DNA from: a virus
Direction: 5' to 3' (one strand)
Length of the DNA: 64,000 nt
Virus record (IMG/VR): IMGVR_UViG_3300041955_000531
The notes under the pieces are model-generated. The model did no database searches and had not been told where the DNA came from. It saw nothing but the letters and a program-made list of their open reading frames with translations. The translations under genes and the position numbers were made by a program. Of this stretch, positions 2,487-38,006 are shown piece after piece. Position 1 is the stretch's first letter. The number at the start of each line of letters is the position of its first letter.

Positions 2487-3770
2487 TTACTCAACCTCAA
2501 CGAAGTTGATGTCATTCGTTGCGGTGAGACCCGTCTTCTTGTTCGTACGGAACAAGGTATAACCGCGGGTCAGAGGACGCGGAGCACCAGCAAGCTTGGG
2601 CTGCGCATCATAGTCTGGAGTCAGACACATACAACCATTCTCGATTCCGATTACCTGGTAATCGTTCCAAGTCTTGCCTGCCATGTGGGTATGACCCATC
2701 ACGGCTGCGGAGACGGGAAGATGAACCAGGCCTACTGGGATAGCTTTCTTGTAGACCCAATCAATGAACCCACCGACACTCTTGTTGGGAATGCGCGAGT
2801 AGAGTTCTGGATGACCGATGACGATATCGCCGCACTGATAGACGAATCGATACTCGGCGAAGCCATCCTTTGGCACTTCAGGAATGACAATGTTCTCAAA
2901 CTGCTTGGTTTGCAGCTCGGCGAAGTCGAATGTGTCAGGTCCATGGAAGTCCAATAGACTCTGATAGAGATCCGCGGGCAATAGCTGAGCGAACTTCTTT
3001 CGAGTGCGCTCGTCATGATTCCCGGGCATCATAATGACTTCGGGATAGGCTGCAGAAAGCTTCTTGAGAATCAGCAAGAAGGCCTTGTGCTCTTCCCGAA
3101 CAGAGAAGTGTTGGCCATACTTCATGTACTTGCTGTAGTTATGGTAATCAGGACCGTCACCAGCAAGGATACAAATATCCACCTTGCCAGCGGTGTCAGC
3201 GATCATCTTATCGAAGCGAGCTTCATCGTGGAATGGAGCATGGATGTCGCTAACGATCAAACCTTCTAGGTAATCAGGATTCCCAGGGCCCTTACCTGTT
3301 TCAGTGCCGGCCGGCCAGCTATGCCAGCCTACCCAATCACGATACTCCGTTAGGATCTCGTCAAAGTTCTTGGCGTACATCGTCTTCATGGGAGATACTT
3401 CAACGACTTTAGGGCTCACAACACTTGTATCCATGTTGTTCACTGTATTGAAGATATCCCAGCACTTCTTACAACCAGATCCACCACAACAGGTTGGCGC
3501 CACGCTACCTTGATAGGTATGCGAGCTACCACAATCCTCTGGGAGGACGGAACTAATCACAGGCTCTGGAACAGCAACCTCGACTATGATTCCCTTCCAC
3601 GCTTCCTTCACTTCTTCAACCGTACGGCCGACCTCGTATGCGATCTCCGTGAACTTCATTCGATGACCCAGCAAGGAATAAATCAAATCCTTCTTGGTCT
3701 TGGGAGCAATAACGTCCCAGTCGTTCTTAAGGTTGAAGATAGCTTCGTCCTTGTTCATGCCTTTCGACAT
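2487..3770 (-). CDS. calcineurin-like metallophosphoesterase with N-terminal HTH-like/Cys-rich extension
   Basis: SDIH, AGDGPD, GNHD, GH and GHTH motifs. Confidence 0.8.
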   Translation of the reverse strand: MSKGMNKDEAIFNLKNDWDVIAPKTKKDLIYSLLGHRMKFTEIAYEVGRTVEEVKEAWKGIIVEVAVPEPVISSVLPEDCGSSHTYQGSVAPTCCGGSGCKKCWDIFNTVNNMDTSVVSPKVVEVSPMKTMYAKNFDEILTEYRDWVGWHSWPAGTETGKGPGNPDYLEGLIVSDIHAPFHDEARFDKMIADTAGKVDICILAGDGPDYHNYSKYMKYGQHFSVREEHKAFLLILKKLSAAYPEVIMMPGNHDERTRKKFAQLLPADLYQSLLDFHGPDTFDFAELQTKQFENIVIPEVPKDGFAEYRFVYQCGDIVIGHPELYSRIPNKSVGGFIDWVYKKAIPVGLVHLPVSAAVMGHTHMAGKTWNDYQVIGIENGCMCLTPDYDAQPKLAGAPRPLTRGYTLFRTNKKTGLTATNDINFVEVE

Positions 3771-4958: not shown

Positions 4959-7619
4959 TTAGAACGGTTCCTTATGAGCCGCATGGCTGCCTATGCCAGG
5001 AGTTGGGTCAGTATTCTTGGCAGCAGCCTTATATTCATTGGCGAGCTGATGATACTTAGCCTGATCATTCAGGCTGCACTCATCCATTCGCCCTGACCTG
5101 GGCTCGAACTTGTAATAGATCGTGCCGTCAAAGGAGTTGATCTTCGACTTGTCGAACACCAGCTCTAAGACAGGCACACGATAAGGCGGAGCGTTGGTGA
5201 TAGGATCCTTATGATCCTGATCGGGATCAATCAATGTAGCATCATCCCCAAAGTCCTTGATGTCGTTGTAAACACCGATGTTAAGAGATGAATCGTAGGA
5301 GATACCACCCGTGCCTTTGATATTCCTTACGCGCGGGCGAACCCCGGGCTGAAGAGAAGTCTTAGGCAGCTCCATGGTCATGATGATCGTTGCATGGTAC
5401 TTGTTTGCAAGACCTTTAACAAACGAAGACATGTGGCGCGTCTTAGCCTCTCCGTCTTGAAAGCCTGGGAAATCATAGAGATGAAAGTTATCTCCAATGA
5501 CGACAAGCTTTCGTTCGGGGAACTTCTGACGAAGTGCCTTAATGCGGTTCTCCAAAGCTGGCAGCGAAGCAGCCAGTGTCGAAACGTCTTCTGGGATGAA
5601 TAGCTCACGTTCGATCTTCTCCTGTGTCCAGGCCATGGCTTGCTGATAGACTTCATGGAACTCCGGCCAGCGTTCTAATGCGAAGCCAGCCTTCTTGAAG
5701 TCATTCGAATACCAGCCAGACTTGAATCCGTCGTCATTGAGCTTGGCATCACAGTAGTTAACCTGCTCGAACTTGGATCCCCACAGACGTGGGAGAAAGA
5801 TAGGCAGGGAATCATCCACCGTATGGTAGAGAACCATGCATTCATTCGGATTGTTATCGATCAGGCGCCACGCCAGGTTAGCAAGGAAAGAAGACTTGCC
5901 CTGGTTCATTTTGCCTGGGATGGTAACGAAGCACTCCGACCGCGGAATGCCACCAACCCACTTGTTGAAGAGAGGCCAGTCATTACCCACAGAAAGCTCG
6001 ACCATGTTAGAGTCTGCTTCCTGAATGGTCTTGATCTCATCGAGATAGCGCATCGTCGCCGATACACTGTATCCAGCCCTACGCTGTTGGGCTTTCTCGA
6101 TCTTGTCCATCGTAGTGGACAATATGGTCAAAGCTTCTAACGGCTTTAGTTGCAGTTGCTTAGCTGCTTGTTGGGACAGGAGAGTAGTCTCTTCATTAAC
6201 CTGAGCTACCTCACTGTCAACTAGCCTTGTGATCTCACGCCATACCACATCCTGCGCGATCCCAGTAGCTTTAGCAAGCTGTTCTGCTTTACGAAGCCGA
6301 ACGAAGTTTGATTGATCATTAACGATAAGTGGTACCATCCTCTCGGCGAGTACCGTCGGATCTTCTCCATTCTTCACCGCCTTATGTAATGACCAGCCAA
6401 ATATGTCTACCTTCTCAAGTTGACGGAAGGCTTTCAGTCCGCCCATCTTGCGGATATAGTTGTCTGGATCGTCGGTGCCTTCTGGCATAGCTACGATTTC
6501 AACGCGGAGGCCAATGTTTCCTCCAACAGACTCCTCCAAAAGCTTGACAAACCGATCAGTGCCAGCTTCTCCTGCGTTGTCAGCGTCGAGAACAAAGACA
6601 ATGTGCTTGATACCAAGACCGAGAATAAGTTCGAGATGGTCTCGCGTGAACGACGTCGACCCAATCGAACAGCTGTTCTGTAGTCCTGCGTTGACAGCTG
6701 TGACGCAATCGGAATACCCCTCAAAGACGTACAGCGGAGGAGTATACTTCCGGGCCCGGTGCAGGCCGAATAGTCTCTTCGACTTCTGATAAATCCTGTT
6801 CCGAATGGCAGTCTCTTCACCAGCATACTCCATCGAGTTTATGTACTTCGCTGGCCGTTTGAGTTCCAATAGTCCCAGCTTACGCTCGTCGCTATCTTCC
6901 GCAGTCGTAGCCAATACATTAGCCTTAGCAGATTCGTACTGTTTGGCTTCTTCTTCGTATAATAGGTTGCGACATGCAAAACCAACTGGGTTGGCATTCT
7001 CATCCTTAACAGTAAAGACGAGATTGTTTTCATTGAACATACTCCTACGGTGCAGATCGACTTCCTTCATGAAGGCGTCTGTCCAACCATGCTGCTTCTT
7101 CATACGCTCGATGAACTTTTCGTACGACTCCACAGAGCCGACTCCAAGTCCCACGCGCGTCTCTTTCGACCAGCCGTAGTCAGTAAGCTTCGACTCAACG
7201 CGGTCGCTAAACTTGGAGAAGAGAAGGATCTGCGCAGCGTCGCGATAGGCACGATACGTATCCATCTCATACTGTTCCTCAGGATTGGGTTCCTCAATAG
7301 GAACCTCAACTCCAAAGGTATCAGCGAGATACTTCAAGTTGTCATGGATAAATGCGGCGCCAGACAGCGCTCGCTGTTCGAGGAAGTAGGCCGCGGTAAA
7401 GATATCGCCCGTGCAATCGCAGCCAAAGCAGTGGAAATAACGTCCCTGAGAGTCAGGAACTATCCCACAAGAGGGATCGCTATCCTCATGTTCAGGGTTC
7501 AGACAGCTGAACAGTTTGCCGCTCTTGATGTGGCGGCCCTGGGATTCCAGGTACTGAACGAGATACTCACGCAACTGATCTTTAGCTGCGCTGTACTTAC
7601 TCAGAATGTTGTTTGTCAT
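4959..7619 (-). CDS. DNA primase-helicase fusion (CHC2 Zn finger, TOPRIM, SF4 helicase)
   Basis: CLNPEHED..CFGC Zn finger; KYINS; FEGYSD and LDADNAG TOPRIM; DPD; GKMNQGKSS Walker A. Confidence 0.92.
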   Translation of the reverse strand: MTNNILSKYSAAKDQLREYLVQYLESQGRHIKSGKLFSCLNPEHEDSDPSCGIVPDSQGRYFHCFGCDCTGDIFTAAYFLEQRALSGAAFIHDNLKYLADTFGVEVPIEEPNPEEQYEMDTYRAYRDAAQILLFSKFSDRVESKLTDYGWSKETRVGLGVGSVESYEKFIERMKKQHGWTDAFMKEVDLHRRSMFNENNLVFTVKDENANPVGFACRNLLYEEEAKQYESAKANVLATTAEDSDERKLGLLELKRPAKYINSMEYAGEETAIRNRIYQKSKRLFGLHRARKYTPPLYVFEGYSDCVTAVNAGLQNSCSIGSTSFTRDHLELILGLGIKHIVFVLDADNAGEAGTDRFVKLLEESVGGNIGLRVEIVAMPEGTDDPDNYIRKMGGLKAFRQLEKVDIFGWSLHKAVKNGEDPTVLAERMVPLIVNDQSNFVRLRKAEQLAKATGIAQDVVWREITRLVDSEVAQVNEETTLLSQQAAKQLQLKPLEALTILSTTMDKIEKAQQRRAGYSVSATMRYLDEIKTIQEADSNMVELSVGNDWPLFNKWVGGIPRSECFVTIPGKMNQGKSSFLANLAWRLIDNNPNECMVLYHTVDDSLPIFLPRLWGSKFEQVNYCDAKLNDDGFKSGWYSNDFKKAGFALERWPEFHEVYQQAMAWTQEKIERELFIPEDVSTLAASLPALENRIKALRQKFPERKLVVIGDNFHLYDFPGFQDGEAKTRHMSSFVKGLANKYHATIIMTMELPKTSLQPGVRPRVRNIKGTGGISYDSSLNIGVYNDIKDFGDDATLIDPDQDHKDPITNAPPYRVPVLELVFDKSKINSFDGTIYYKFEPRSGRMDECSLNDQAKYHQLANEYKAAAKNTDPTPGIGSHAAHKEPF

Positions 7620-7629
7620 TGGTATCCTT

Positions 7630-7641
7630 CTGATTAGTATA
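7630..7641 (-). promoter_or_regulatory. putative phage promoter motif TATACTAATCAG
   Basis: same motif at 19460, 20919 and 34625, each in an intergenic gap shortly upstream of a gene; preceded here by TGTGT (extended -10-like). Confidence 0.6.
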
Positions 7642-7676
7642 ACACATTAGCGACCGCTCAACCGCACAAAATAAGG

Positions 7677-17908: not shown

Positions 17909-19161
17909 TATACTTTCCTCTCAGCCTCTTCCGTTTCTTCTTCTTCCTGGGCTGCCAACATGTCGTTGACCATGGGCGCCAGGTCTGGGTACTCCAGAGC
18001 AATACAAGGGAACTTATAAGGGCAGTATCGGCACTGCCAGTCCCCAATAATAGGTCCGACCTTAGAGTCCTTCCACTTACGGCTCTTGCCGTTCTTCCAG
18101 GACTTCCATTCGGCGAACTTAACCTTGCCAATGAAGCCCTTTTCAGCGAAGCTTTCGATAGCTATGTCGGTATAACGGTAGCGGTAGTCTGCTGGGGGTA
18201 GGTATGACGTCGGTAGGCGTCTCATCTCCTCCCCAACCCTCTCCCAGAATGCCTTTTCCTGCTGTTTCCAGGCGATTACAGCCTCTTCCGGCGCTTCCGC
18301 GGGCAAGGAGGCTGGACGGACTGTCCCCTGCTCCTGGAGCCTCCGGATCGCTTCAGCCTGTGATCGGTTAAAGTAACCCTGGATCTGTTCGAAGCGTTCA
18401 TAAATCGACTCCACCGTGAAAATGCGCCAAACATCTCCGTTGACTTGAGGATAGTGGAGGCCATCATAATCCTCGTAGATTTCGATATCGAACTCCGCTG
18501 TGAGGCAGGTGTCTCGTGTCTCGTAGCAAATCTTTCCATACACGGGCGAATCATCTTTGATCATCCCTAGGTTGACGTCGGTGACACGGACTCGGTTGCG
18601 CGGATTAGTTGGTTTATCCGCTTGCGCAGTTGCAATGATTTGCTTGAGCAGGGCACCATTACGTATCTCGTTGATATAGATGAGTGTCTGGAGAACATGC
18701 TCGAGCTTTGGCTTCCCCTTCTGATAAGGGCCACCAATGATTTCCTTCTGGGCCATATAGCCGTAGATTGATTTGTTTTCACATATCACCGGTTGTCCTG
18801 ACTGAGGGTCTATGACAATAAGGTCCAACTCAAAGGCCAGATCAATGTTCGGGACGTAGTGCCTGACCCCACTGGCAATATGCAGACCGGCCTCCATAGC
18901 CTGAAGCGTGGTATCTTCCTCAACGGCTTTACCAGTTCGAACTCGACGCGCACCGACGGGGTCCATCTGACTTGTAGTCTTCTCCCCTGTGAGCCTGTAA
19001 TATACCTTTCGTCCACAGCCCCCGGCAAAACCCGCAACTGTGGGTTCGAGGAGGACAGCCGAACTCTCTGAAGGCCAGAGTCTGGCAGACTTGCTTGTCC
19101 AGTCATCACGCTTCTCCATTCCAACTAGTGCTTTGTCGAGGTGCTCAAACAACTTAAACAT
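17908..19161 (-). CDS. Cas4-like PD-(D/E)XK exonuclease with 4-Cys Fe-S staple
   Basis: WPSE..GCGRKVYY; ELD; ENKS; QTLIY; CRYCPYKFPC. Confidence 0.8.
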   Translation of the reverse strand: MFKLFEHLDKALVGMEKRDDWTSKSARLWPSESSAVLLEPTVAGFAGGCGRKVYYRLTGEKTTSQMDPVGARRVRTGKAVEEDTTLQAMEAGLHIASGVRHYVPNIDLAFELDLIVIDPQSGQPVICENKSIYGYMAQKEIIGGPYQKGKPKLEHVLQTLIYINEIRNGALLKQIIATAQADKPTNPRNRVRVTDVNLGMIKDDSPVYGKICYETRDTCLTAEFDIEIYEDYDGLHYPQVNGDVWRIFTVESIYERFEQIQGYFNRSQAEAIRRLQEQGTVRPASLPAEAPEEAVIAWKQQEKAFWERVGEEMRRLPTSYLPPADYRYRYTDIAIESFAEKGFIGKVKFAEWKSWKNGKSRKWKDSKVGPIIGDWQCRYCPYKFPCIALEYPDLAPMVNDMLAAQEEEETEEAERKV

Positions 19162-19297
19162 CGGTAGGCCTCCACTTCTTGTCGTGCTTTAGCCTCTGCA
19201 TCTTCTGGATAGCCTCGATGCGAGTAAGCTTTTCTTGCTTCATTAGTTCGGCGATTTTTGCTTCTTCTTGCTCTGACCAACCTTTGGTTGTGTCCAT
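19154..19297 (-). CDS. small hypothetical protein (MDTTKGWSEQEE...)
   Basis: GAGGT SD; 3' part of track ORF 19154..19414. Confidence 0.6.
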   Translation of the reverse strand: MDTTKGWSEQEEAKIAELMKQEKLTRIEAIQKMQRLKHDKKWRPTDV

Positions 19298-19312
19298 ATT
19301 ACCTCTTGAAAG

Positions 19313-19419
19313 GGTGTCTCCCGGGGAGGGATTCGAACCCTCCCCTTCGGTATTCAGGACCGACGTGCTCCGTCGACGGCCTACTATTTTATCGAACTCC
19401 AATACACCACCCAAGAGAC
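19313..19419 (-). tRNA. atypical tRNA-like RNA (Gln-like body, anticodon loop CCTGAAT, 35-nt D-loop)
   Basis: acceptor GTCTCTTGGG/CCCGGGAGAC; D-stem GTGT/GCAC; anticodon stem TCGGT/ACCGA; T-arm GAGGG-TTCGAAT-CCCTC. Confidence 0.65.
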
Positions 19420-19459
19420 GAGATGTTAGGGCAAGGTGAGAGGATCAAAAGCGGTCCAA

Positions 19460-19470
19460 TGATTAGTATT
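19460..19470 (-). promoter_or_regulatory. putative phage promoter motif AATACTAATCA
   Basis: variant of the recurrent motif, ~40 nt upstream of the tRNA-like element. Confidence 0.5.
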
Positions 19471-19568
19471 GTCACCACTAAATCGGGCGCCGACGCTTAA
19501 TGGGCAATCGGACTTCATATTAGATATGGACAGTGCAGTGTCCAGTCTCACCTACTGCTGCCCTAATG

Positions 19569-20360
19569 TTATTCAACCTGTGGGACGGCGTCGCTCACAG
19601 CAACAACGTGAGACTTCTCGCCTTCAATATACTCCACAGGCTTTTGTAACTTGTCTTGGACAGCTTCCCAGACCATCTGGAAGACCTGTCCCGGAGTCTG
19701 TTCGGGATAGACAGTGATCACGATCGTGCGATCCTGACCTACTAGTCTTTCCAGATACTCCTGCTGGATTCGAATCTGGTCTTGGGTGTGAGCCCAGGCC
19801 TTTCCAGCTTGTTTGTTGTTGTCGCCGCGCCGTTGACGCGCGCGGTCGAGAAAAGCATCCACATCTGATGCTACGAACAGCACGGTGATGTCTGGCAGTG
19901 GTCCGTAGAACTCCTGGAAAGCATCCAGTATAACACCTGGCGTCTTCTTTATGGGTGCGTAGGCCCACTCGGAGTCGGAGTAACGGTCGGACAATACCAC
20001 CAAGCCTTTTTCAAGGGCCGGCTCAACCACCTTTGCCACATGCTGAATGTGATCGGCGAGGAAGAGACAGTCAGCCACTCCACGGGCCATGTTGTGTGTC
20101 GTGACCGTGTGGAACAAGATTTGGCGTATCGCAGAGCCCAAGTCAGTTGGGTCGACTGGGCTGCCAGGTTCCTTTGTAACCACAACCCCATAACCTTCCT
20201 CCCTCATGCGGGCAGCAAGCATCTCCAACTGCGTGGACTTACCCGTTCCATCTACTCCCTCGAAGGTTATGAGACGTCCCTTCCGTACTGGCTTATGAAG
20301 CTCTGGGTAAAGAGGATCTCCAAAAATCCGCTTATAGTTTTCTTTCGTCTCTTCCGACAT
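19569..20360 (-). CDS. tmk: thymidylate kinase with cassette-derived replacement N-terminus
   Basis: ITFEGVDGTGKST P-loop; TKEPG; LFLAD; SDRY. Confidence 0.93.
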   Translation of the reverse strand: MSEETKENYKRIFGDPLYPELHKPVRKGRLITFEGVDGTGKSTQLEMLAARMREEGYGVVVTKEPGSPVDPTDLGSAIRQILFHTVTTHNMARGVADCLFLADHIQHVAKVVEPALEKGLVVLSDRYSDSEWAYAPIKKTPGVILDAFQEFYGPLPDITVLFVASDVDAFLDRARQRRGDNNKQAGKAWAHTQDQIRIQQEYLERLVGQDRTIVITVYPEQTPGQVFQMVWEAVQDKLQKPVEYIEGEKSHVVAVSDAVPQVE

Positions 20361-20880
20361 TTATGCTCCTCATCCATTCTGCCACTTTCATTACTTCTTC
20401 AGGGGTGGCATCGTTCTTGATTACATTAGCCCGCTGGCTAATAACTTGAATATTTCCTGGGACATAACCCTTATTAGGAACAATCCTATCAAGAGTTGGA
20501 CTCGACGCAATAGAACCTGGCTTCCCAACCCCTTTCTTCAATACTATTCCAAGAATAGGACAGACCAAAGGTATTTTGGGGACGTCGGCGGGCTTAATAG
20601 AAAAAGGTAAGTGCTTCTTTATTGCCCTCTTCCTCGCCCCATTCCATAAAGCATACTCTGGGGTGTTGAAAAGACCATGCTTCAAACCACTATGCCCTTT
20701 CTTATAACACCCGCAACTTTTGCTTCTTCCGTTCTCAAGGTTGGAACCAATAACGTTTACTACCTTGCCACATTTACATTCACATTGCCAACGAGTAGCA
20801 CCCCATCTGGCGTTCTCAACCTGCTTGATAACCTTGAGCCAAGTGAATGTCTTTCCAACAAGATCCAGTATCTTTCCCAT
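20332..20880 (-). CDS. HNH-type homing endonuclease
   Basis: DLVGKTF..WQCECKCG..SKSCGC N-terminal module; CPILG..SPTLDRIVPNKGYVPGNIQVISQRANVIK. Confidence 0.85.
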   Translation of the reverse strand: MGKILDLVGKTFTWLKVIKQVENARWGATRWQCECKCGKVVNVIGSNLENGRSKSCGCYKKGHSGLKHGLFNTPEYALWNGARKRAIKKHLPFSIKPADVPKIPLVCPILGIVLKKGVGKPGSIASSPTLDRIVPNKGYVPGNIQVISQRANVIKNDATPEEVMKVAEWMRSINVGRDERKL

Positions 20881-20918
20881 ACTTCACCTCAGTTGAGTAG
20901 ATTTACAAGCCTACTCTT

Positions 20919-20930
20919 CTGGTTAGTATA
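20919..20930 (-). promoter_or_regulatory. putative phage promoter motif TATACTAACCAG
   Basis: lies at the edge of the HNH cassette; its TAA also terminates the orphan tmk fragment. Confidence 0.6.
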
Positions 20931-20970
20931 GTAAATCAACGCCTTCGAACGTGATGAAATGTCCTTTCAT
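20923..20970 (-). pseudogene. tmk: orphaned original 5' end of tmk (MKGHFITFEGVD-LLY*)
   Basis: AGGAG SD, then ATG AAA GGA CAT TTC ATC ACG TTC GAA GGC GTT GAT TTA CTA TAC TAA. Confidence 0.8.
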
Positions 20971-21009
20971 TCTAATCTCCTGACATGTTGTATGTAAATC
21001 AGTTTACCC

Positions 21010-21486
21010 TTACCGCCCTGTCGAGCCAAAGCCTTGTGCACCCCGAGAACTCTCACCCAAAGTGGTAGCTTCTTGAACAGTGCCGGGAAACACCGGAACC
21101 AATACCAGTTGAGCAATCTTGTCTCCATGGTTGTAAATGACCGTGGGATCCGAGACCGAGTAGTTTGGCCCAAGGCAACCTCCTGAGCCATGATACTCTA
21201 CCGGCTCGTTCGAGTTGTACAACAGGACAGTGATTTCACCCCGGTAACCACTGTCAACCACGCCTCCGAAGACATCGATGCCAGCCTTCCCTTGTGAGCT
21301 ACGAGCTTTAATGATTGCGCCCCAGCCTTCCGGAAACTCGCAAGCAATGCCTGTCTTGACCGCAACAGTTTGACCGGGCTGTACAGCCACCGTCTCGATG
21401 GCGAAAAGATCAAACCCGAGATCCCCAGGATGCGCTCTCTGGGGCAGCTTCGCGTCCGCCTGTAGTTTCTTGACATACAGTTCCAT
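21010..21486 (-). CDS. dut: trimeric dUTPase with insertion between motifs III and IV
   Basis: GFDL; ARSS; GVVDSGYRGEI; DKIAQL; RGAQGFGSTG. Confidence 0.95.
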   Translation of the reverse strand: MELYVKKLQADAKLPQRAHPGDLGFDLFAIETVAVQPGQTVAVKTGIACEFPEGWGAIIKARSSQGKAGIDVFGGVVDSGYRGEITVLLYNSNEPVEYHGSGGCLGPNYSVSDPTVIYNHGDKIAQLVLVPVFPGTVQEATTLGESSRGAQGFGSTGR

Positions 21487-21496
21487 GATTCTCTCC

Positions 21497-21670
21497 TTAT
21501 AGAGGATAGCTAGAGTGAGTCTTCACAGGCTTCTTCGTGGTGAAACCGCGAGAGGCCTTGCTAGTAGTCACTTGCTTGGCTCGAATGAGTTCCTTTCCAG
21601 GGCTCTTTGAGCTGCCGGCGATGTTGAACTTCTTCTTCTTCGCCTTCTTCTTATCTTCTGCTTCCATCAT
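21497..21670 (-). CDS. small Lys-rich hypothetical protein
   Basis: AAGGAG SD before MMEAEDKKK. Confidence 0.5.
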   Translation of the reverse strand: MMEAEDKKKAKKKKFNIAGSSKSPGKELIRAKQVTTSKASRGFTTKKPVKTHSSYPL

Positions 21671-21671
21671 A

Positions 21672-22769
21672 TTACTCCTTAGGTGGGCTCGCGAACACTT
21701 TCTCGCGCGCGAACTCATAGTTCTTTTGAACACGTTCCTTCTCAGAGTCAGGAAGGTGTTGACCTTCCTTCACTCCCATTAATAGAGACGCCCACGTATT
21801 GGCTGCCTCATGAAATCGTCCAGTGAAGAAAGCAGCCAAGGCATATTCATCCCTGTTCCGCCACTCATAGTAACTTCGATCTACGAAGAGCTTGTCATCA
21901 GGGAGAGGAATCTGGCATGCCTTCTCAGCCGCCATGTATGCCAGGTGATACATCTTCCTCTCCCGACAGTATCGTGCGAGAGCACCCAAGGACTCAGACC
22001 TATTTGGATTGTTATCATAAGCATGCAGGAAATCTGCAATGATTATGTTCCAAGTGTCCCCTCTCTTCATCTCCAGAACCGCGACCTGAAACAAAGAATA
22101 CCATACTTCTTCGTACCAACCACCCATAGCAGCTCTCTTCAAATAGAGCTCTATAGCTTTGCTATAGGAACCCGCGTCCCTATAGCTCTGAGCTAAGTAG
22201 AATATATTGCGGGCATTATCCGGATCTTTCTTCAGCTCCGCCTCGAGAATCTCGGCGTCCTTAAGAAAATACTCCGTCGTTTTTACCCGCCCAGACTCCT
22301 GGACAACAACAGGCAACGTCTCCATCTTAGGCTTATCAGGCTCAGGCGTAAGATACTCATGCGTGGCTCCCACATGATGCCAGTTGTACTTGGGTGGCAG
22401 AAGGAAAGGCTTCTTAAACTCTGTGGATCCCTGCTTATGAATAGCCCAATAGGCTACATCAGGATCGAGCTTCAAGGCGAGCTTGCTCTGTGGAACGATA
22501 ACCTGATCACCGTCCAAAAGCAACAGGAAGTCTGGCTTGCTCACTCGACCGAGTTCAATAAGCTCATTCCGATTCGCTGTCCAGCCGACCCACGGTCGAT
22601 CAATAAGATTACCAGGGATATCAGCCATCTCTTCTAGGACGATGTCCTTGGTGTTGTCTGTAGACCCAGTGTCTATGACTAACCAGCGTTGTATGAAGGG
22701 CTTAGCTGACTTCAAAGCCTCACGGATCCTCTCGGATTCGTTCTTGACCATCATACACAGACAGATCAT
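21672..22769 (-). CDS. family-2 glycosyltransferase with TPR-like C-terminus
   Basis: ICLCMMVKNE; DTGSTD; LLDGD; THEY; RNIFYLAQSYRD TPR region. Confidence 0.85.
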   Translation of the reverse strand: MICLCMMVKNESERIREALKSAKPFIQRWLVIDTGSTDNTKDIVLEEMADIPGNLIDRPWVGWTANRNELIELGRVSKPDFLLLLDGDQVIVPQSKLALKLDPDVAYWAIHKQGSTEFKKPFLLPPKYNWHHVGATHEYLTPEPDKPKMETLPVVVQESGRVKTTEYFLKDAEILEAELKKDPDNARNIFYLAQSYRDAGSYSKAIELYLKRAAMGGWYEEVWYSLFQVAVLEMKRGDTWNIIIADFLHAYDNNPNRSESLGALARYCRERKMYHLAYMAAEKACQIPLPDDKLFVDRSYYEWRNRDEYALAAFFTGRFHEAANTWASLLMGVKEGQHLPDSEKERVQKNYEFAREKVFASPPKE

Positions 22770-33779: not shown

Positions 33780-34077
33780 TCTCAACCTCCTCAAACTTCA
33801 CATCGGTCTTCAGCCGGACTGTGTTAAACTTGTATGCTTCCACGATCGTCTTGGCAGGACCGGCCAGCCCATTGATAAAGCGATGGCCTTTCTTCCTCTT
33901 AACGATCGTCAAGGTACCCAGTCCTTCGACATCTACATCTCGGCCTTCCTTGATGGCCTTCTTCCATACCTCTACGACCTGATCGACCAGCTTGGCTGCC
34001 TTACGTTGTGAGTAGCCTAACTGATCGACCAGGCGTTGTGCGAGTAAAGCCTTACCAGCTCTCAGTTTGCCTGGCAT
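33724..34077 (-). CDS. HU/IHF-like DNA-binding protein
   Basis: AAKLVDQVVEV..AIKEG..V.VEGLGTLTIVKRK; TAATG coupling to the DYWKKG stop. Confidence 0.75.
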   Translation of the reverse strand: MPGKLRAGKALLAQRLVDQLGYSQRKAAKLVDQVVEVWKKAIKEGRDVDVEGLGTLTIVKRKKGHRFINGLAGPAKTIVEAYKFNTVRLKTDVKFEEVENARDEQEPVRGPEEPQQS

Positions 34078-34610
34078 TATCCCTTCTTCCAATAGTCGCT
34101 GATTCTAATAGCATGTTCAACGAACTCCTCGACAGACAAATCTCTCTTGGCATAGTTACACTGCTTGCAACAAGGCACGCAGTTGTCTGGCGTGTATCCA
34201 ATGCTGGAATCTTTCCTGTCAACTCCATTATGCTTATAGGAATCACTGGGTGTAGTCCAAACAAGAGCGGGTTCTGCGCCGCAGTAATAACAACGTTGAG
34301 AAGTTATCTCCTTAAACTGCTCATCAGAAAGTTCCCAAGTCTGCCCTCTTTTTCGGGCTGCTTGTCTGTAAGCATTCAGAAGTGCTCGGAAAGATGACCC
34401 TTCTTTCTTTCTCTTGTTACTGGAAACAGCCTTTCGTAAACAACCGCAACTGAATGTATTCTTACCCAAATGTGCCTGGGATACATTACAGAAACGCTTA
34501 CATGTACATTGACATCTCCATACAGCTCCGCCGAACCTATTGTTCTTCAAGCGACGGATGACCGTCAGATGCCCGATGACCTTGCCTTTCAAATCGATTA
34601 AGTTTGCCAT
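34077..34610 (-). CDS. HNH-type homing endonuclease ending in the original PolA C-terminus
   Basis: DLKGK..WRCQCTC..SCGC; CYYCG; NGVDRKDSSIGYTPDNCVPCCKQCNYAK; ends ISDYWKKG*. Confidence 0.88.
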   Translation of the reverse strand: MANLIDLKGKVIGHLTVIRRLKNNRFGGAVWRCQCTCKRFCNVSQAHLGKNTFSCGCLRKAVSSNKRKKEGSSFRALLNAYRQAARKRGQTWELSDEQFKEITSQRCYYCGAEPALVWTTPSDSYKHNGVDRKDSSIGYTPDNCVPCCKQCNYAKRDLSVEEFVEHAIRISDYWKKG

Positions 34611-34698
34611 AACTACCTCCAGTCCTGATTAGTATAGGCTTTACCTATCTTACAGTTCAGTTGAACTGGATGAATGGCTAACCTTTCTTCCAATAATC
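34098..34698 (-). mobile_element. intron-less HNH cassette inserted at the polA 3' end, carrying a recoded polA terminus
   Basis: GATTATTGGAAGAAAGGTTAG (34678-34698) versus GACTATTGGAAGAAGGGATAA (34077-34097): 4 differences, all synonymous. Confidence 0.75.
34625..34636 (-). promoter_or_regulatory. putative phage promoter motif TATACTAATCAG within an RBS-occluding hairpin
   Basis: identical to motif at 7630; TCCAGTT (34670-34664) can pair with GACTGGA overlapping the GGAGG SD. Confidence 0.6.
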
Positions 34699-35664
34699 CG
34701 CCACGGTCACGTCCGTCTTGTGAATGATATGATCATGATTCGTCTGTCCCTCAGACGGAATCAACTGATTGTATGCCCACTGCATCCCGTCCACCATGAT
34801 CTTGTTGACCGCATCGACTTCGCTGTCCGGACAAGTGAGGACAAGTTCGTCATGAACGAAAAGGAGGAAATGGGCCTCGTGGATGAGAGGGCCAGAGGAT
34901 TGACCCCCGCGGAGATCGAGATAGATCTTGCTGACAGCCATCTTAAGGGCGTCAGCACATGCCGCTTGAATGGGGTGGTTACCTGTGTATCTTTTGATCT
35001 GACTGATAATCTCATTGTAACGGTCCTTCTCTTCCTTGCCGCCGTCAGGATCTTTATATGGTATTTGGTAGAACCTGTAATGGCCGCCTAAAGACTTGGA
35101 CCAGCCATACTTAAGACCGTGCTTGCCTTGTTTGTCCAGCCAGATCTTCAGACCCTTCGCCTTCTTGAAGTAGTCGTCGATCAGCTTCTCGGCTTGCTCT
35201 TCGGTGTAGGGAGGTTCGTTCGACCCTGGTTTTCGGCCGCTATTAATCTGTTTAGCCACCTGACCTGGGCCTGCGCCATACGGCACACCGAATGTTGTGG
35301 TCTTAATCTCCGACCGCCAGCCATAATATTGATTGTATAGGGGATGGTCTTCATGTTTGTATGCATAAAAGAAGTCGTCGTACGGTATCCCATGGACGTC
35401 CGATGCCATATAACAATGAATGTCCTTGCCCGAGTTCAAAGCCTCCAACAGCCACTCATCTTGAGACTCCCAGGCCATGATACGGACTTCAATCTGACTG
35501 TAGTCCGCGCCTAGGATCTTCCAGCCCGGGCGGGCCCTGATACCCTCTCGGATATCAGGGACTCGCCAGGCTATCCATGGCTGTGGATGTTTCTTATCGG
35601 CCGGGCAGAGATAGTACTCCCTTCCGTTGCTGATACCTAACAGCTCTGGTTTTACGCCGGCCAT
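34678..35664 (-). CDS. polA: family-A DNA polymerase, C-terminal (palm/fingers) subunit
   Basis: motif A ADYSQIEVR; motif B RSEIKTTTFGVPYG; NHPIQ; motif C VHDELV; own AAGGAG SD. Confidence 0.92.
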   Translation of the reverse strand: MAGVKPELLGISNGREYYLCPADKKHPQPWIAWRVPDIREGIRARPGWKILGADYSQIEVRIMAWESQDEWLLEALNSGKDIHCYMASDVHGIPYDDFFYAYKHEDHPLYNQYYGWRSEIKTTTFGVPYGAGPGQVAKQINSGRKPGSNEPPYTEEQAEKLIDDYFKKAKGLKIWLDKQGKHGLKYGWSKSLGGHYRFYQIPYKDPDGGKEEKDRYNEIISQIKRYTGNHPIQAACADALKMAVSKIYLDLRGGQSSGPLIHEAHFLLFVHDELVLTCPDSEVDAVNKIMVDGMQWAYNQLIPSEGQTNHDHIIHKTDVTVADYWKKG

Positions 35665-35673
35665 GTTGTCTCC

Positions 35674-36129
35674 TTACGGGGCGGAGAAGCCTATACTTTC
35701 GTCTTCGTGCTTCCCTTCCTCTTCATCTTGTTCGAAGAGCTCGGCGCCATCTTCTGAGGCAACCTCGCGACTTAAACCAGCCTTCTGCGCGCGCGTAGCA
35801 TTCCGGTAGTCACGTTCAGTGAACGCCGACTCGAGAATGATATTGCCTTCCTTATCTCGATAGGCCCACCATTGTGGTTCCACCTTCACCAAGCCGATGG
35901 CCTCACCAACCTTACGGTAGAAGCGGCCGACTGACTTTGTAGTCATGGCTCTGGAGATATCAAAATCTGCCACAGCCTCCTGAAGCTTGCGATACTCTTC
36001 CACGAGCGTAGTCTTATAGCGCTCATACTCGACGAAGAGTTCTGTTGCTTCCTGGAAGATCTCAGGATGTGACTCCTTGATCTCTGACAGCTTGTATTTC
36101 GTTGTACGGATGATCCTATTTCTTGCCAC
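35674..36129 (-). CDS. hypothetical protein with acidic tail, lying between the two polA halves
   Basis: GGAGG SD plus GTG at 36129; track ORF 35674..36216. Confidence 0.7.
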   Translation of the reverse strand: MARNRIIRTTKYKLSEIKESHPEIFQEATELFVEYERYKTTLVEEYRKLQEAVADFDISRAMTTKSVGRFYRKVGEAIGLVKVEPQWWAYRDKEGNIILESAFTERDYRNATRAQKAGLSREVASEDGAELFEQDEEEGKHEDESIGFSAP

Positions 36130-37501
36130 TGGCAACCTCCGGTTGATTGAACTTCTCCACAGCTTTATTGTACTGCTCTGAGAACAAAATCTTGATATGT
36201 TCTGCCGCGTCTCCAACGACAGGATCTAAGATATGATCAGGTCTCGGGAACTGCTGTGCATCCGACGACCACCGCCCTGTAGCAATAGTAGTCGCCTTGT
36301 CCCCGCCTTTTCTCTTTTCCAGATCGCCGGACCCCAGTTGATTAAACTCAGGGTGCAGACGACCATCAGTAGTAGACCTACGAGCAAGCATCCTTTCGCC
36401 ATAAGTTGAAATGATCTTGGTACACTCAGTGTACTCTCCTAAGAGATCAGCGAACTCCGTCTCTAAGGCAAGAAGTGTCTCCCTCTTAGTATCCTTTACT
36501 TCAAAGCCCATCTTGTGAAGAGCTCCCAACTTCTTGGTAGCTGAGTTGATATCAAACTCTTCCATTGTATCAGGCAGGAGGAAGTTACGCTTCTTTCCTG
36601 CCTTGTCGAGGGCATCATCATAAATCTGCATGGCTTTATCCCTGATGCTCTTCGCCTTGGCGCGCCAGTAATCTAGCGTGGACTCAATGCGCTGATCATC
36701 AAGATCAAAGCCCGTCAGCTCTGCGTCGGCCGTGCCAGCCATAGCACAGAACTCTATTTGAATCCTTTCCCACATCCCAGGATGCTTCTTGATTTCCTTC
36801 AGCTGCTCTTGCTTGATTGGAAATAGGAGGAAGACGTCACGGGCGGCGTAGTAAAGGTGTCGGTATTGTAATACGCCAGACATGTTAATAAACTCGCGAC
36901 GGACAGCTTTGGAGATGAGATAGTGTGGAGGGTATTTCTCCGATAGTTCTTCAAGACCGACCTGAACTCCATATAAACCCGCCGTGAGTATTTGCTCTGC
37001 CAGCATCGTATCGTACAAGCTGGGGATGTATACCTTGGTTTTATCATCGTAGTGATAGTTGATGAAGTGGACTCCATACTTAGCCAGGCAGAACTTGAAG
37101 TCGTACACTCCGTTCTGGGTTAAGAAGAGCCTGTCTTCATCCTCCAGGATTCCCTTAAACTCCGGTACCAGCTTTGGTTCAATAAGGTAAACCATCTTAG
37201 GAGTACCCAGCTGGAATAGAAGCATGCGGGACGATGGCGAAAGCGGGTCCAGTCCATCGCGTTTATTATCGCCCCCAGTTTCAGAGTCGATACCAAGTTC
37301 TTGTTGTTTGGTAAGCCACGTAAGCGGTGCAGATAGGTCATTCTTAGAATGTACCTTGGTGATGTCCGAATCCGGAACCGCTCCTTCTCCAATGGATCCA
37401 TTTATCCACTCCGGTGTGCCAATAACATGGAAGGGAACATCAATGTGCTCCTCAAGTTGCTTGGACGTTATCGTCTGGAACGCTGGCTTCTTGCTTGCCA
37501 C
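36116..37501 (-). CDS. polA: family-A DNA polymerase, N-terminal subunit (3'-5' exonuclease plus thumb)
   Basis: ExoI IDSET; ExoII QNGVYD; YDTMLAE; ExoIII YAARDV; GRLHPEFNQ; ATGRWSS..QQFPR; likely GTG start at 37501. Confidence 0.9.
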   Translation of the reverse strand: MASKKPAFQTITSKQLEEHIDVPFHVIGTPEWINGSIGEGAVPDSDITKVHSKNDLSAPLTWLTKQQELGIDSETGGDNKRDGLDPLSPSSRMLLFQLGTPKMVYLIEPKLVPEFKGILEDEDRLFLTQNGVYDFKFCLAKYGVHFINYHYDDKTKVYIPSLYDTMLAEQILTAGLYGVQVGLEELSEKYPPHYLISKAVRREFINMSGVLQYRHLYYAARDVFLLFPIKQEQLKEIKKHPGMWERIQIEFCAMAGTADAELTGFDLDDQRIESTLDYWRAKAKSIRDKAMQIYDDALDKAGKKRNFLLPDTMEEFDINSATKKLGALHKMGFEVKDTKRETLLALETEFADLLGEYTECTKIISTYGERMLARRSTTDGRLHPEFNQLGSGDLEKRKGGDKATTIATGRWSSDAQQFPRPDHILDPVVGDAAEHIKILFSEQYNKAVEKFNQPEVASGKK

Positions 37502-38006
37502 AGATCGCCTCGTGTGCTGCTGTGATTTCGGGCAACTTGTTGCCCAAGAAACTGAAGAGCTCACCCAACTGAGGACCGACAGTCCACGTCTGATAGAGCG
37601 GATGCTCATAGATATCCAAGGATGAAGACAGACTGAATGATGGCACGATCAGGAAGCCCAAGAGCTGACCACGAGTAATCAAACGGGTACAGCACTCATA
37701 GACTTCGAAGTTCAAATGGAAACGCCAGTTAAACTTCTCTCCAATCTTGATGCCGATCAGATAGACAGTATGTAGTGGAACATGTGGCGCCACTCCGAAA
37801 GGGAGTATCTGTTTGTAGCCACCGCCCCACATAGTAACCTGCTTCTTACTCTCTATCTGCTTCAGAAGTACACTACCGTACCCGCTATTGCTAGTAATGT
37901 TGATATTCAGAATAGTGCAGGCTCTCCATGCATCCTTGGACCAGGAGGCATGTTGCCAAACAGCCTGTCCGATGTGATACCCTGCGAATGGTTCTTTATC
38001 TGGCAT
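37452..38006 (-). CDS. hypothetical protein
   Basis: GAGGAG SD. Confidence 0.6.
   Translation of the reverse strand: MPDKEPFAGYHIGQAVWQHASWSKDAWRACTILNINITSNSGYGSVLLKQIESKKQVTMWGGGYKQILPFGVAPHVPLHTVYLIGIKIGEKFNWRFHLNFEVYECCTRLITRGQLLGFLIVPSFSLSSSLDIYEHPLYQTWTVGPQLGELFSFLGNKLPEITAAHEAICGKQEASVPDDNVQAT

Follow-up and report, generated by a model that had tools for sequence, protein, structure and literature searches.

How can a nuclease gene sit inside the coding sequence of a useful gene, with neither intron nor intein around it, and leave that gene translatable? The question is raised by the dut–tmk locus of IMG/VR virus record IMGVR_UViG_3300041955_000531, of which we analysed a stretch of 64,000 nucleotides (nt), called here the window; coordinates are positions in it. 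Read along the minus strand, on which all four features lie, the order is dut, a stranded start of tmk, a gene for a nuclease of 182 amino acids (aa) and a complete tmk of 263 aa. Our answer, which we hold to be likely, is that the insert is an end-replacing homing cassette, that is, a free-standing gene for a PacI-like HNH nuclease from a clade found at tmk 5′ ends, which carries with it a replacement start for the gene that it enters.

The features of the locus are the following.

20935..20981, minus strand: stranded native tmk start, made of GGAG, ATG and codons 1-12 (MKGHFITFEGVD); matches at 36/36 nt the start of tmk in L056, a relative with an empty dut–tmk junction
20923..20934, minus strand: left junction, cassette DNA that reads LLY-stop in the orphan frame (read directly)
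20284..20934, minus strand: the 651-nt cassette itself, which no empty allele contains (compared by blastn with L001 and L056)
20332..20880, minus strand: nuclease gene, 182 aa, with its own GAGGTG, ATG and stop; predicted PacI-like HNH
20283..20370, minus strand: tmk translation start supplied by the cassette, with AGGAG (20370-20366), ATG (20360-20358) and a 26-codon leader (read directly)
20250..20282, minus strand: second, in-gene version of tmk codons 2-12 (KGRLITFEGVD) in another spelling, 8/33 nt different from the orphan
20118..20249, minus strand: tmk stretch from codon 13 to about 56, which together with codons 2-12 has raised silent divergence from L001
19569..20360, minus strand: working tmk open reading frame (ORF), 263 aa, intact (Pfam PF02223, Thymidylate_kin, E 6e-30)
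21010..21486, minus strand: dut (dUTPase, 158 aa; Pfam PF00692, E 9e-27), the upstream neighbour and part of the putative left homology arm

The stranded start has a GGAG at 20980-20977 and an ATG at 20970, and encodes MKGHFITFEGVD followed by LLY and a stop codon that ends at 20923. The stretch that supplies these last codons (20923..20934) has no homology to any empty allele compared (blastn against L001 and L056), and the G+C content of the cassette is 43%, versus 54% in dut and tmk. At the other end of the insert, tmk starts anew within the nuclease gene: the first 29 nt of the tmk ORF overlap the 3′ end of the nuclease ORF. A TAA in the frame of tmk stands directly before its ATG, and upstream of the P-loop the tmk ORF has no in-frame ATG, GTG or TTG other than the ATG at 20360. 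The protein begins with the leader MSEETKENYKRIFGDPLYPELHKPVR (26 aa), after which it continues as KGRLITFEGVDGTGKS. The Thymidylate_kin match begins at Tmk residue 33; in an AlphaFold2 (AF2) model of the protein the core has a predicted local distance difference test (pLDDT) score over 90 and the leader one of 59-72. Such a confident core is compatible with a working enzyme, without being evidence of activity. In a wetland metatranscriptome run (X7) two contigs match the window at 100% (19511-19678 and 19809-19964) and cover the 3′ half of tmk only, with no coverage of the cassette or of either junction; they may be DNA carry-over.

The stranded and the in-gene versions of the tmk start form a pair of 33-nt copies (20967..20935 and 20282..20250) that share nine of 11 residues and differ at 8 of 33 nt, with six of the differences at silent third positions and two that change a residue (H/R and F/L). 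Judged from its sequence, this repeat is not due to chance. In blastn comparisons both blocks map to the identical 33 nt of the intact tmk of L001 (positions 6000-6032), and hence the insert consists of 20284-20934 plus a 33-nt duplication. Excising 685 nt (20250-20934) puts GTT GAT in frame with GGA ACG GGT AAG; the insertion point is tmk codon 12/13, directly before the P-loop GTGK. The preliminary description of this locus, made from the letters of the window, had proposed just such a layout (an orphan with a Shine–Dalgarno (SD) sequence and an LLY-stop, and a tmk that restarts in the 3′ end of the HNH gene with a 26-aa leader), and we can confirm it base for base. Its counts for the two copies, its claim that the deletion restores a normal tmk and its placement of the insertion at a conserved motif agree with our reading as well. 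It had also proposed a search for relatives with an empty dut–tmk junction.

Five such relatives were found: L001 (L001-3/L050), L053, L054, L056 and L057/58. In all of them dut directly precedes a tmk of 230-241 aa that begins M[KR]G[RH][FL]ITFEG[VI]DGTGK. Three IMG/VR contigs encode a Tmk with 89% protein identity to that of the window, over residues 27-263 only; in the L001-type contigs the gene directly after dut is a tmk of 238 aa whose product begins MKGRLITFEGVDGTGK. The same initial motif is shared by all of the ~45 members of the Tmk clade (55-89% identity), and the 26-aa leader was found in none of them. Two clade members, P0039/L056 among them, begin MKGHFITFEGVDGTGKST, which is exactly the sequence that had been predicted for the empty allele.

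Comparison with L056 locates the breakpoint. Between 22362 and 20935 the window and L056 share 97.3% identity over 1428 bp; this match, which includes 36/36 identical nt in the tmk start, ends at the last base of stranded codon 12. Beyond the cassette tmk shows 71.9% identity to L056 and, to both L001 and L057, about 82%, while the identity to L056 rises again to 91.8% in the next large gene past tmk. Contigs of two pond metagenomes (X4 and X5) cover 20935-21600 with 1-3 differences (~99.5% identity) and depart from the window at 20935, where they read, on the coding strand, GGG ACA GGC AAG TCC ACT CAG ATT GAG ATG; these 30 letters are identical to those of the L056 empty allele. Near-identical left flanks thus exist with and without the cassette, and they split at a single base. 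Base 20935 can accordingly be identified, from these alignments, as a recombination boundary as well as the edge of the insertion. Presence and absence of the element at one exact site between close relatives are accompanied by a fall in flank identity (left flank 97%, tmk 72% versus L056), as expected of co-conversion. Since the working tmk is not of the lineage of the stranded piece, the last event imported or retained a whole foreign tmk.

When IMG/VR was searched with a degenerate DNA pattern that fits tmk starts, whether stranded or intact, only five alleles came back, all of them intact, and a Tmk search of metagenome contigs retrieved a single further contig, of the L001 type. No match to 19400-21600 turned up when 50,697 phage records were searched by sensitive blastn; tblastn of Tmk against the same records gave homologues below 60% identity only.

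What kind of protein does the cassette encode? The 182-aa product matches PHROG 3322/374/1035 (endonuclease families). No Pfam family matches it at E ≤ 0.01, nor any of 10 homologues at E ≤ 1; a profile of the 10 homologues matches PacI (3LDY) with E 3.6e-5 over residues 108-177. The best Foldseek match of its AF2 model (pLDDT 80) is PacI as well (probability 0.99, E 8e-3), the next being the Gme HNH nickase. The C-terminal domain has the features of a PacI-like HNH (His-Me finger) domain, with the pattern LDR..GY..N......N.IK, whose catalytic set aligns with VDR..GY..N..CNRIK of PacI. D131, G138, Y139, N143, N152 and K155 are invariant in the homologues, and R132 is present in at least 90% of them. 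In PacI a Tyr in the omega loop replaces the His that serves as catalytic general base (PMC5714182). The window protein has the same predicted arrangement, with no general-base His, a Tyr in its stead and a metal-binding Asn, and both the profile and the model identify it as a PacI-like HNH, or His-Me finger, nuclease. Its N-terminal half carries an invariant CxCxCG...CGC pattern, which is probably a zinc ribbon for DNA binding, with no more than a weak CapR hint for it. With its own ORF and translation signals, outside any intron or intein, the gene can be classed as a putative free-standing homing endonuclease gene. Every contig found to carry the exact protein is identical to the window, and a search of genome contigs with the nuclease profile yielded two distant matches.

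The relatives of this nuclease point to tmk. Five of the seven closest homologues with genomic context lie directly upstream of tmk (P0002, P0003, P0004, P0006 and L061; 49-56% identity), and in those five the nuclease gene ends somewhere between 20 nt upstream and 8 nt downstream of the tmk start codon, so that the two genes overlap or abut. What stands upstream of the tmk-linked nucleases varies (dut, a phosphoesterase, ribonucleotide reductase (RNR) and others). The two remaining close homologues, P0005 and P0007 (46% identity), and about 100 more distant ones are not adjacent to tmk. From this gene order we conclude that the nuclease clade is tied to phage tmk starts. The proposal of a homing element made in the preliminary description is backed by this tie together with the presence and absence of the insert at one exact point.

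A second stranded tmk start was found in L041, an unrelated phage contig. Right after the RNR stop it reads, within 2905-2990, ATG AAC AAA GGT AAG TTA ATC ACA TTT GAA GGG GTG, then unrelated codons and a stop; the stranded peptide, MNKGKLITFEGV, is followed by the nuclease gene and then by an intact divergent tmk (MQKVVGKFLTIEGAEGAGKST). By its sequence L041 is an independent case, broken at the same codon as the window, which places the probable cut site at or just after that codon.

The spelling of the in-gene copy bears on the origin of the replacement. Its 33 nt differ from every relative compared at 7-11 positions; versus L001 the differences number 11 and are all silent. In comparisons that, covering 33-63 nt, are small-sample ones, 10 of its 11 codons differ silently from L001 versus 35% of codons elsewhere in the gene (P = 2e-4), and the first 63 nt of tmk are 29% different from L001 versus 17% for the rest (P = 0.02). 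Over the whole gene 38% of same-residue codons differ from L001, with 31 of 51 such codons differing among the first 55 and 49/161 in the remainder (Fisher P = 1e-4). The first 63 nt are about equally distant from L001 and L053, and the rest of tmk is clearly L001-like. We read the raised silent divergence near the junction as a probable older, short co-conversion tract, overlaid by the recent event that is seen versus L056.

The preliminary description had taken the in-gene copy for a synonymously recoded version that supplies a replacement N-terminus. The excess of silent changes bears out the first part, but GAG GGA GTA GAT of this copy is also present in the natural empty alleles L053 and L054 (GGA ACG GGT at G13-T14-G15 is in none of the five, all of which have GG[G/T/C] AC[A/T] GGC there), so that the “recoding” is more economically explained as imported allelic divergence; the differently spelled copy is thus more likely to have come from another lineage than to have been recoded in place. 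As to the replacement, a new start and a leader are indeed supplied, but the difference extends beyond the N-terminus to the whole working tmk (72% identity to L056 versus 97% for the left flank).

Is the layout confined to tmk? We screened 113 loci with related nucleases for flank duplications, comparing peptides encoded in the 330 nt upstream with the region around the 3′ end, as the preliminary description had suggested for phage HNH genes. The window tmk cassette scored 47, among the few high scores not due to low complexity (median 31). Besides low-complexity noise the screen returned four cases, namely the window tmk cassette, a polA cassette in the window, L101 and L021. The second cassette of the window is located as follows.

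34077-34704, minus strand: second cassette; the polA C-terminal ORF ends ADYWKKG-stop and the nuclease paralogue ends SDYWKKG-stop

The nuclease of this cassette (34610..34077, 177 aa) is 27% identical to the first and runs into the TAATG of the next gene; at the same site a spacer of 213 nt takes its place in the relative L005. A similar ..A.YM+.. helix closes other nucleases of the family, so the nuclease may have had part of the DYWKKG match natively. The gene for the family A DNA polymerase itself (34678-37609, minus strand) is spread over three successive ORFs of 497, 180 and 328 aa. This layout is colinear in L005 and could be a natural split or an inserted segment.

In L101 a stranded polA start, MSAPFKHIVCIDF (2922-2960), is followed by a related nuclease and then by an intact polA start (3597-3635), which reads MSAPYKQIICIDFETF. 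The two copies (MSAPFKHIVCIDF versus MSAPYKQIICIDF) differ at 8/39 nt, with the silent changes crowded at the junction, and on this pattern L101 can be classed as another 5′-end replacement. Its stranded start ends at the Exo I DxE motif. L021 has the duplication at the opposite end: the last 38 aa of a 67-aa gene (1674-1877) upstream of a related nuclease are repeated, in diverged form, downstream of it (about 2510-2635), which makes it, as far as the repeat tells, a duplication of the 3′-end type. A second HNH gene is present in L021 at 647-1360.

The two cassettes of the window also share a short motif at their edge.

20919..20931, minus strand: CTATACTAACCAG motif at the 5′ margin of the cassette, from which the nuclease gene may be transcribed (candidate phage promoter)

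Only two exact copies of CTATACTAACCAG exist in the 64-kb window, at 20931..20919 and, before the second nuclease gene, at 34637..34625. A copy with one mismatch, TTATACTAATCAG, lies at 7642..7630 (minus strand), 11 nt before the start of the primase-helicase gene. The motif may be a phage promoter that the cassettes carried or acquired. The sequence CTATACTAAYCAG was noted at the 5′ edge of both nuclease cassettes (minus strand).

How could the present arrangement have come about? In a mixed infection the enzyme would cut an empty tmk at codon 12 or immediately behind it, where GAY meets GGN ACN GGN AAR (P-loop), and the break would be repaired from the cassette-bearing genome. The left end would pair with dut and the stranded tmk start, and the right end with tmk or with DNA beyond it. 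The unit copied would comprise the promoter-like motif, the nuclease gene, the new ribosome-binding site and ATG, the 26-codon leader and the differently spelled 5′ segment of tmk. In this way tmk would stay translatable without splicing and codons 1-12 of the recipient would be left behind. The new allele would presumably not be cut, and the hybrid tmk of 263 aa may be functional.

Several points weigh against this account of a homing cassette. Cleavage, immunity and expression are steps that we infer, and so is the activity of a Tmk extended by a 26-aa leader that is confined to the window allele. The spelling statistics are small-sample ones, and the in-gene spelling is partly that of the natural empty alleles L053 and L054. 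The exact cassette is present only in contigs 100% identical to the window, and no sign of recent spread into several backbones was found. Among the six tmk-linked nucleases, four (L040, L043/44, L049 and L061) lack a stranded start; the stranded piece may therefore be an occasional scar and not a standing part of the element. This last observation, along with the natural spelling and the lack of a second backbone, speaks for the one serious rival, in which an ordinary intergenic homing endonuclease was at work, repair with one-sided homology joined the broken end illegitimately, the stranded start is a dead by-product and the silent differences are those of the donor allele. Against it stands the independent recurrence of the layout, in L041 at the tmk codon that is broken in the window and in L101, L021 and the window polA at other genes. 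Moreover, the stranded start provides perfect left homology up to the cut, which is how the model for the WHO elements of yeasts uses its stranded fragment (PMC7282813). We regard the scar explanation as unlikely but deserving of attention. It departs from the end-replacing cassette only on the function of the stranded piece, not on the nature of the element.

Other explanations carry far less weight. HNH genes often reside in phage group I introns, and excision of 20250-20934 would restore the frame, so that removal of the 685 nt at the RNA or protein level (by a group I/II intron, an intein or translational bypass) could in principle restore Tmk. A permissive Rfam scan (E ≤ 1) of 18500-22500 on both strands, however, found no intron family. 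The nuclease ORF fills 549 of the 651 inserted nt, which leaves about 100 nt of non-ORF sequence; the orphan frame ends in a stop, the nuclease and tmk each have their own SD sequence and ATG, and neither an in-frame fusion nor a Hint domain is present. With the gene start duplicated, splicing is in any case unnecessary. The absence of an intron or intein stated in the preliminary description thus holds, there being no Rfam core and a nuclease whose own SD sequence, start and stop preclude an in-frame fusion, and we consider removal extremely improbable. Translational bypass was dropped in view of the 685-nt length and the stops in frame, and a two-piece Tmk was dropped since the 12 stranded residues are all repeated in the full protein. 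Assembly of a chimera from two phage strains might be suspected because the DNA is metagenomic and the closest relative changes right at the breakpoint; against this, contigs of five other samples (European Nucleotide Archive (ENA), Joint Genome Institute (JGI) and Logan assemblies) are 100% identical across both junctions, and a 1442-nt contig of X2 spans the right junction and the whole nuclease gene and reaches 12 nt past the left junction. A chimera is as improbable as removal. Hardly better placed is a target-site or tandem duplication, arising by transposition or replication slippage, with the nuclease between the copies by chance. Direct repeats do flank the insert, but the two copies disagree at 8/33 nt and do not share a nearest relative (36/36 identical to L056 for one, 7-11 nt off every relative for the other), neither a transposase nor terminal inverted repeats are present, and the nuclease clade is tied specifically to tmk starts.

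The sole hit of the Rfam scan was tRNA-like (19324-19411, minus strand) and scored 29.4 bits against a threshold of 29; ARAGORN called no tRNA within 18500-21500, nor any in L001, L056 or L057. The hit is placed in the interval from tmk to the next large gene, a part with a difference of about 1.4 kb between the window and L056, and may represent a decayed or interrupted tRNA.

If the end-replacing cassette is the correct explanation, a replacement gene start, carried along, is what lets a homing endonuclease enter the coding sequence of a useful gene with neither intron nor intein. The locus would offer a concrete pair of enzyme and target, the 182-aa nuclease and tmk codons about 10-16, and would explain a mosaic boundary so sharp that identity passes from 97% to 72% at a single base. 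For annotation there are two warnings: short orphan ORFs beside HNH genes can be stranded gene ends, and odd N-terminal extensions can derive from cassettes. The layout is a natural counterpart of engineered cleave-and-rescue gene drives. We suggest tentatively, as an idea with slightly less in its favour than against it, that PacI-like HNH genes of phages make up a class of natural ‘cut and rescue’ drives. Members of the class would carry a resistant 5′ or 3′ end of the target gene, with a new translation start in the case of 5′ ends, and would use the stranded end as a homology arm; one clade would be that of the tmk P-loop, several cassettes could share a genome, and their positions would be breakpoints of mosaic exchange.

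The principle is already known from WHO elements and from mobile ORFs (mORFs) of fungal mitochondria, and with the window a design of yeast nuclei and fungal mitochondria would be documented in phages, and at 5′ ends, as well. WHO elements are found at FBA1 in Torulaspora and Lachancea yeasts (Coughlan et al. 2020, PMC7282813). Their homing swaps the 3′ end of FBA1 for a copy that is resistant and diverged, the old end stays behind as a stranded fragment that doubles as a homology arm, and for WHO6 allele-specific cleavage was shown (PMC7282813). The window cassette shares with them an endonuclease gene beside its target, the replacement of one gene end, the stranding of the old one, the lack of splicing and a chimeric target gene; the layered tract near its junction, too, matches the WHO-type chimeric evolution of FBA1 (PMC7282813). 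It differs in that WHO elements replace a 3′ end, whereas in the window the 5′ end is replaced, so that an SD sequence and a start codon must come with the cassette as well. The proteins of WHO elements are intein-like and have zinc fingers, and the window enzyme is a predicted PacI-like HNH nuclease; the WHO setting is a eukaryotic nuclear genome at meiosis, that of the window a phage.

Gene hybrids made by fungal mORFs are known for atp6, atp9, cox2 and nad3 of Glomus (Beaudet et al. 2013, PMC3630166) and for atp6 of Allomyces macrogynus (Paquin et al. 1994, as cited in PMC3630166). There, as in the window, the gene end is foreign and differs mostly silently, the stranded native end is near-identical to that of close relatives and the frame is kept. 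The fungal cases, however, are all C-terminal replacements, made with LAGLIDADG or GIY-YIG enzymes in organelle genomes. In the window the nuclease gene stands between two versions of one gene end, one in frame and one stranded; the stranded version matches a close relative (36/36 nt with L056), and the in-gene version is diverged (7-11/33 nt). The enzyme is of neither the WHO nor the LAGLIDADG or GIY-YIG type, and the end replaced is not the 3′ one. The cassette thus works like the WHO and mORF elements while standing outside their protein families.

Among phages, the free-standing T4 endonucleases SegF, SegG and MobE are said, in work of Belle and colleagues from 2002, to promote intronless homing. 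Intronless homing by free-standing phage endonucleases is treated by Wilson and Edgell (2009, PMC2790892), and nuclease genes have been found to mark boundaries of exchange (Barth et al. 2023, PMC10448857). The resemblance to the T4 case lies in a free-standing nuclease beside its target and in a break repaired from the carrier with co-conversion of flanking markers; the T4 genes are intergenic and are not known to leave a duplicated gene end, whereas the window insertion is inside coding sequence and carries a gene start. In Aeromonas phage Aeh1, nrdA is reportedly split by mobE, with products of the two pieces that assemble (work of Friedrich and colleagues, 2007). That case would likewise be one of a free-standing HNH gene in a phage gene of nucleotide metabolism with no intron or intein, but the window tmk stays in one piece: the downstream ORF encodes the entire protein, and the fragment upstream is redundant. 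We found no published phage account of a design like that of the window in a literature search that was incomplete, subscription journals being largely uncovered, and a precedent may exist. Relative to the intronless homing of T4, what is new in the window cassette is its insertion within coding sequence together with the replacement that it carries.

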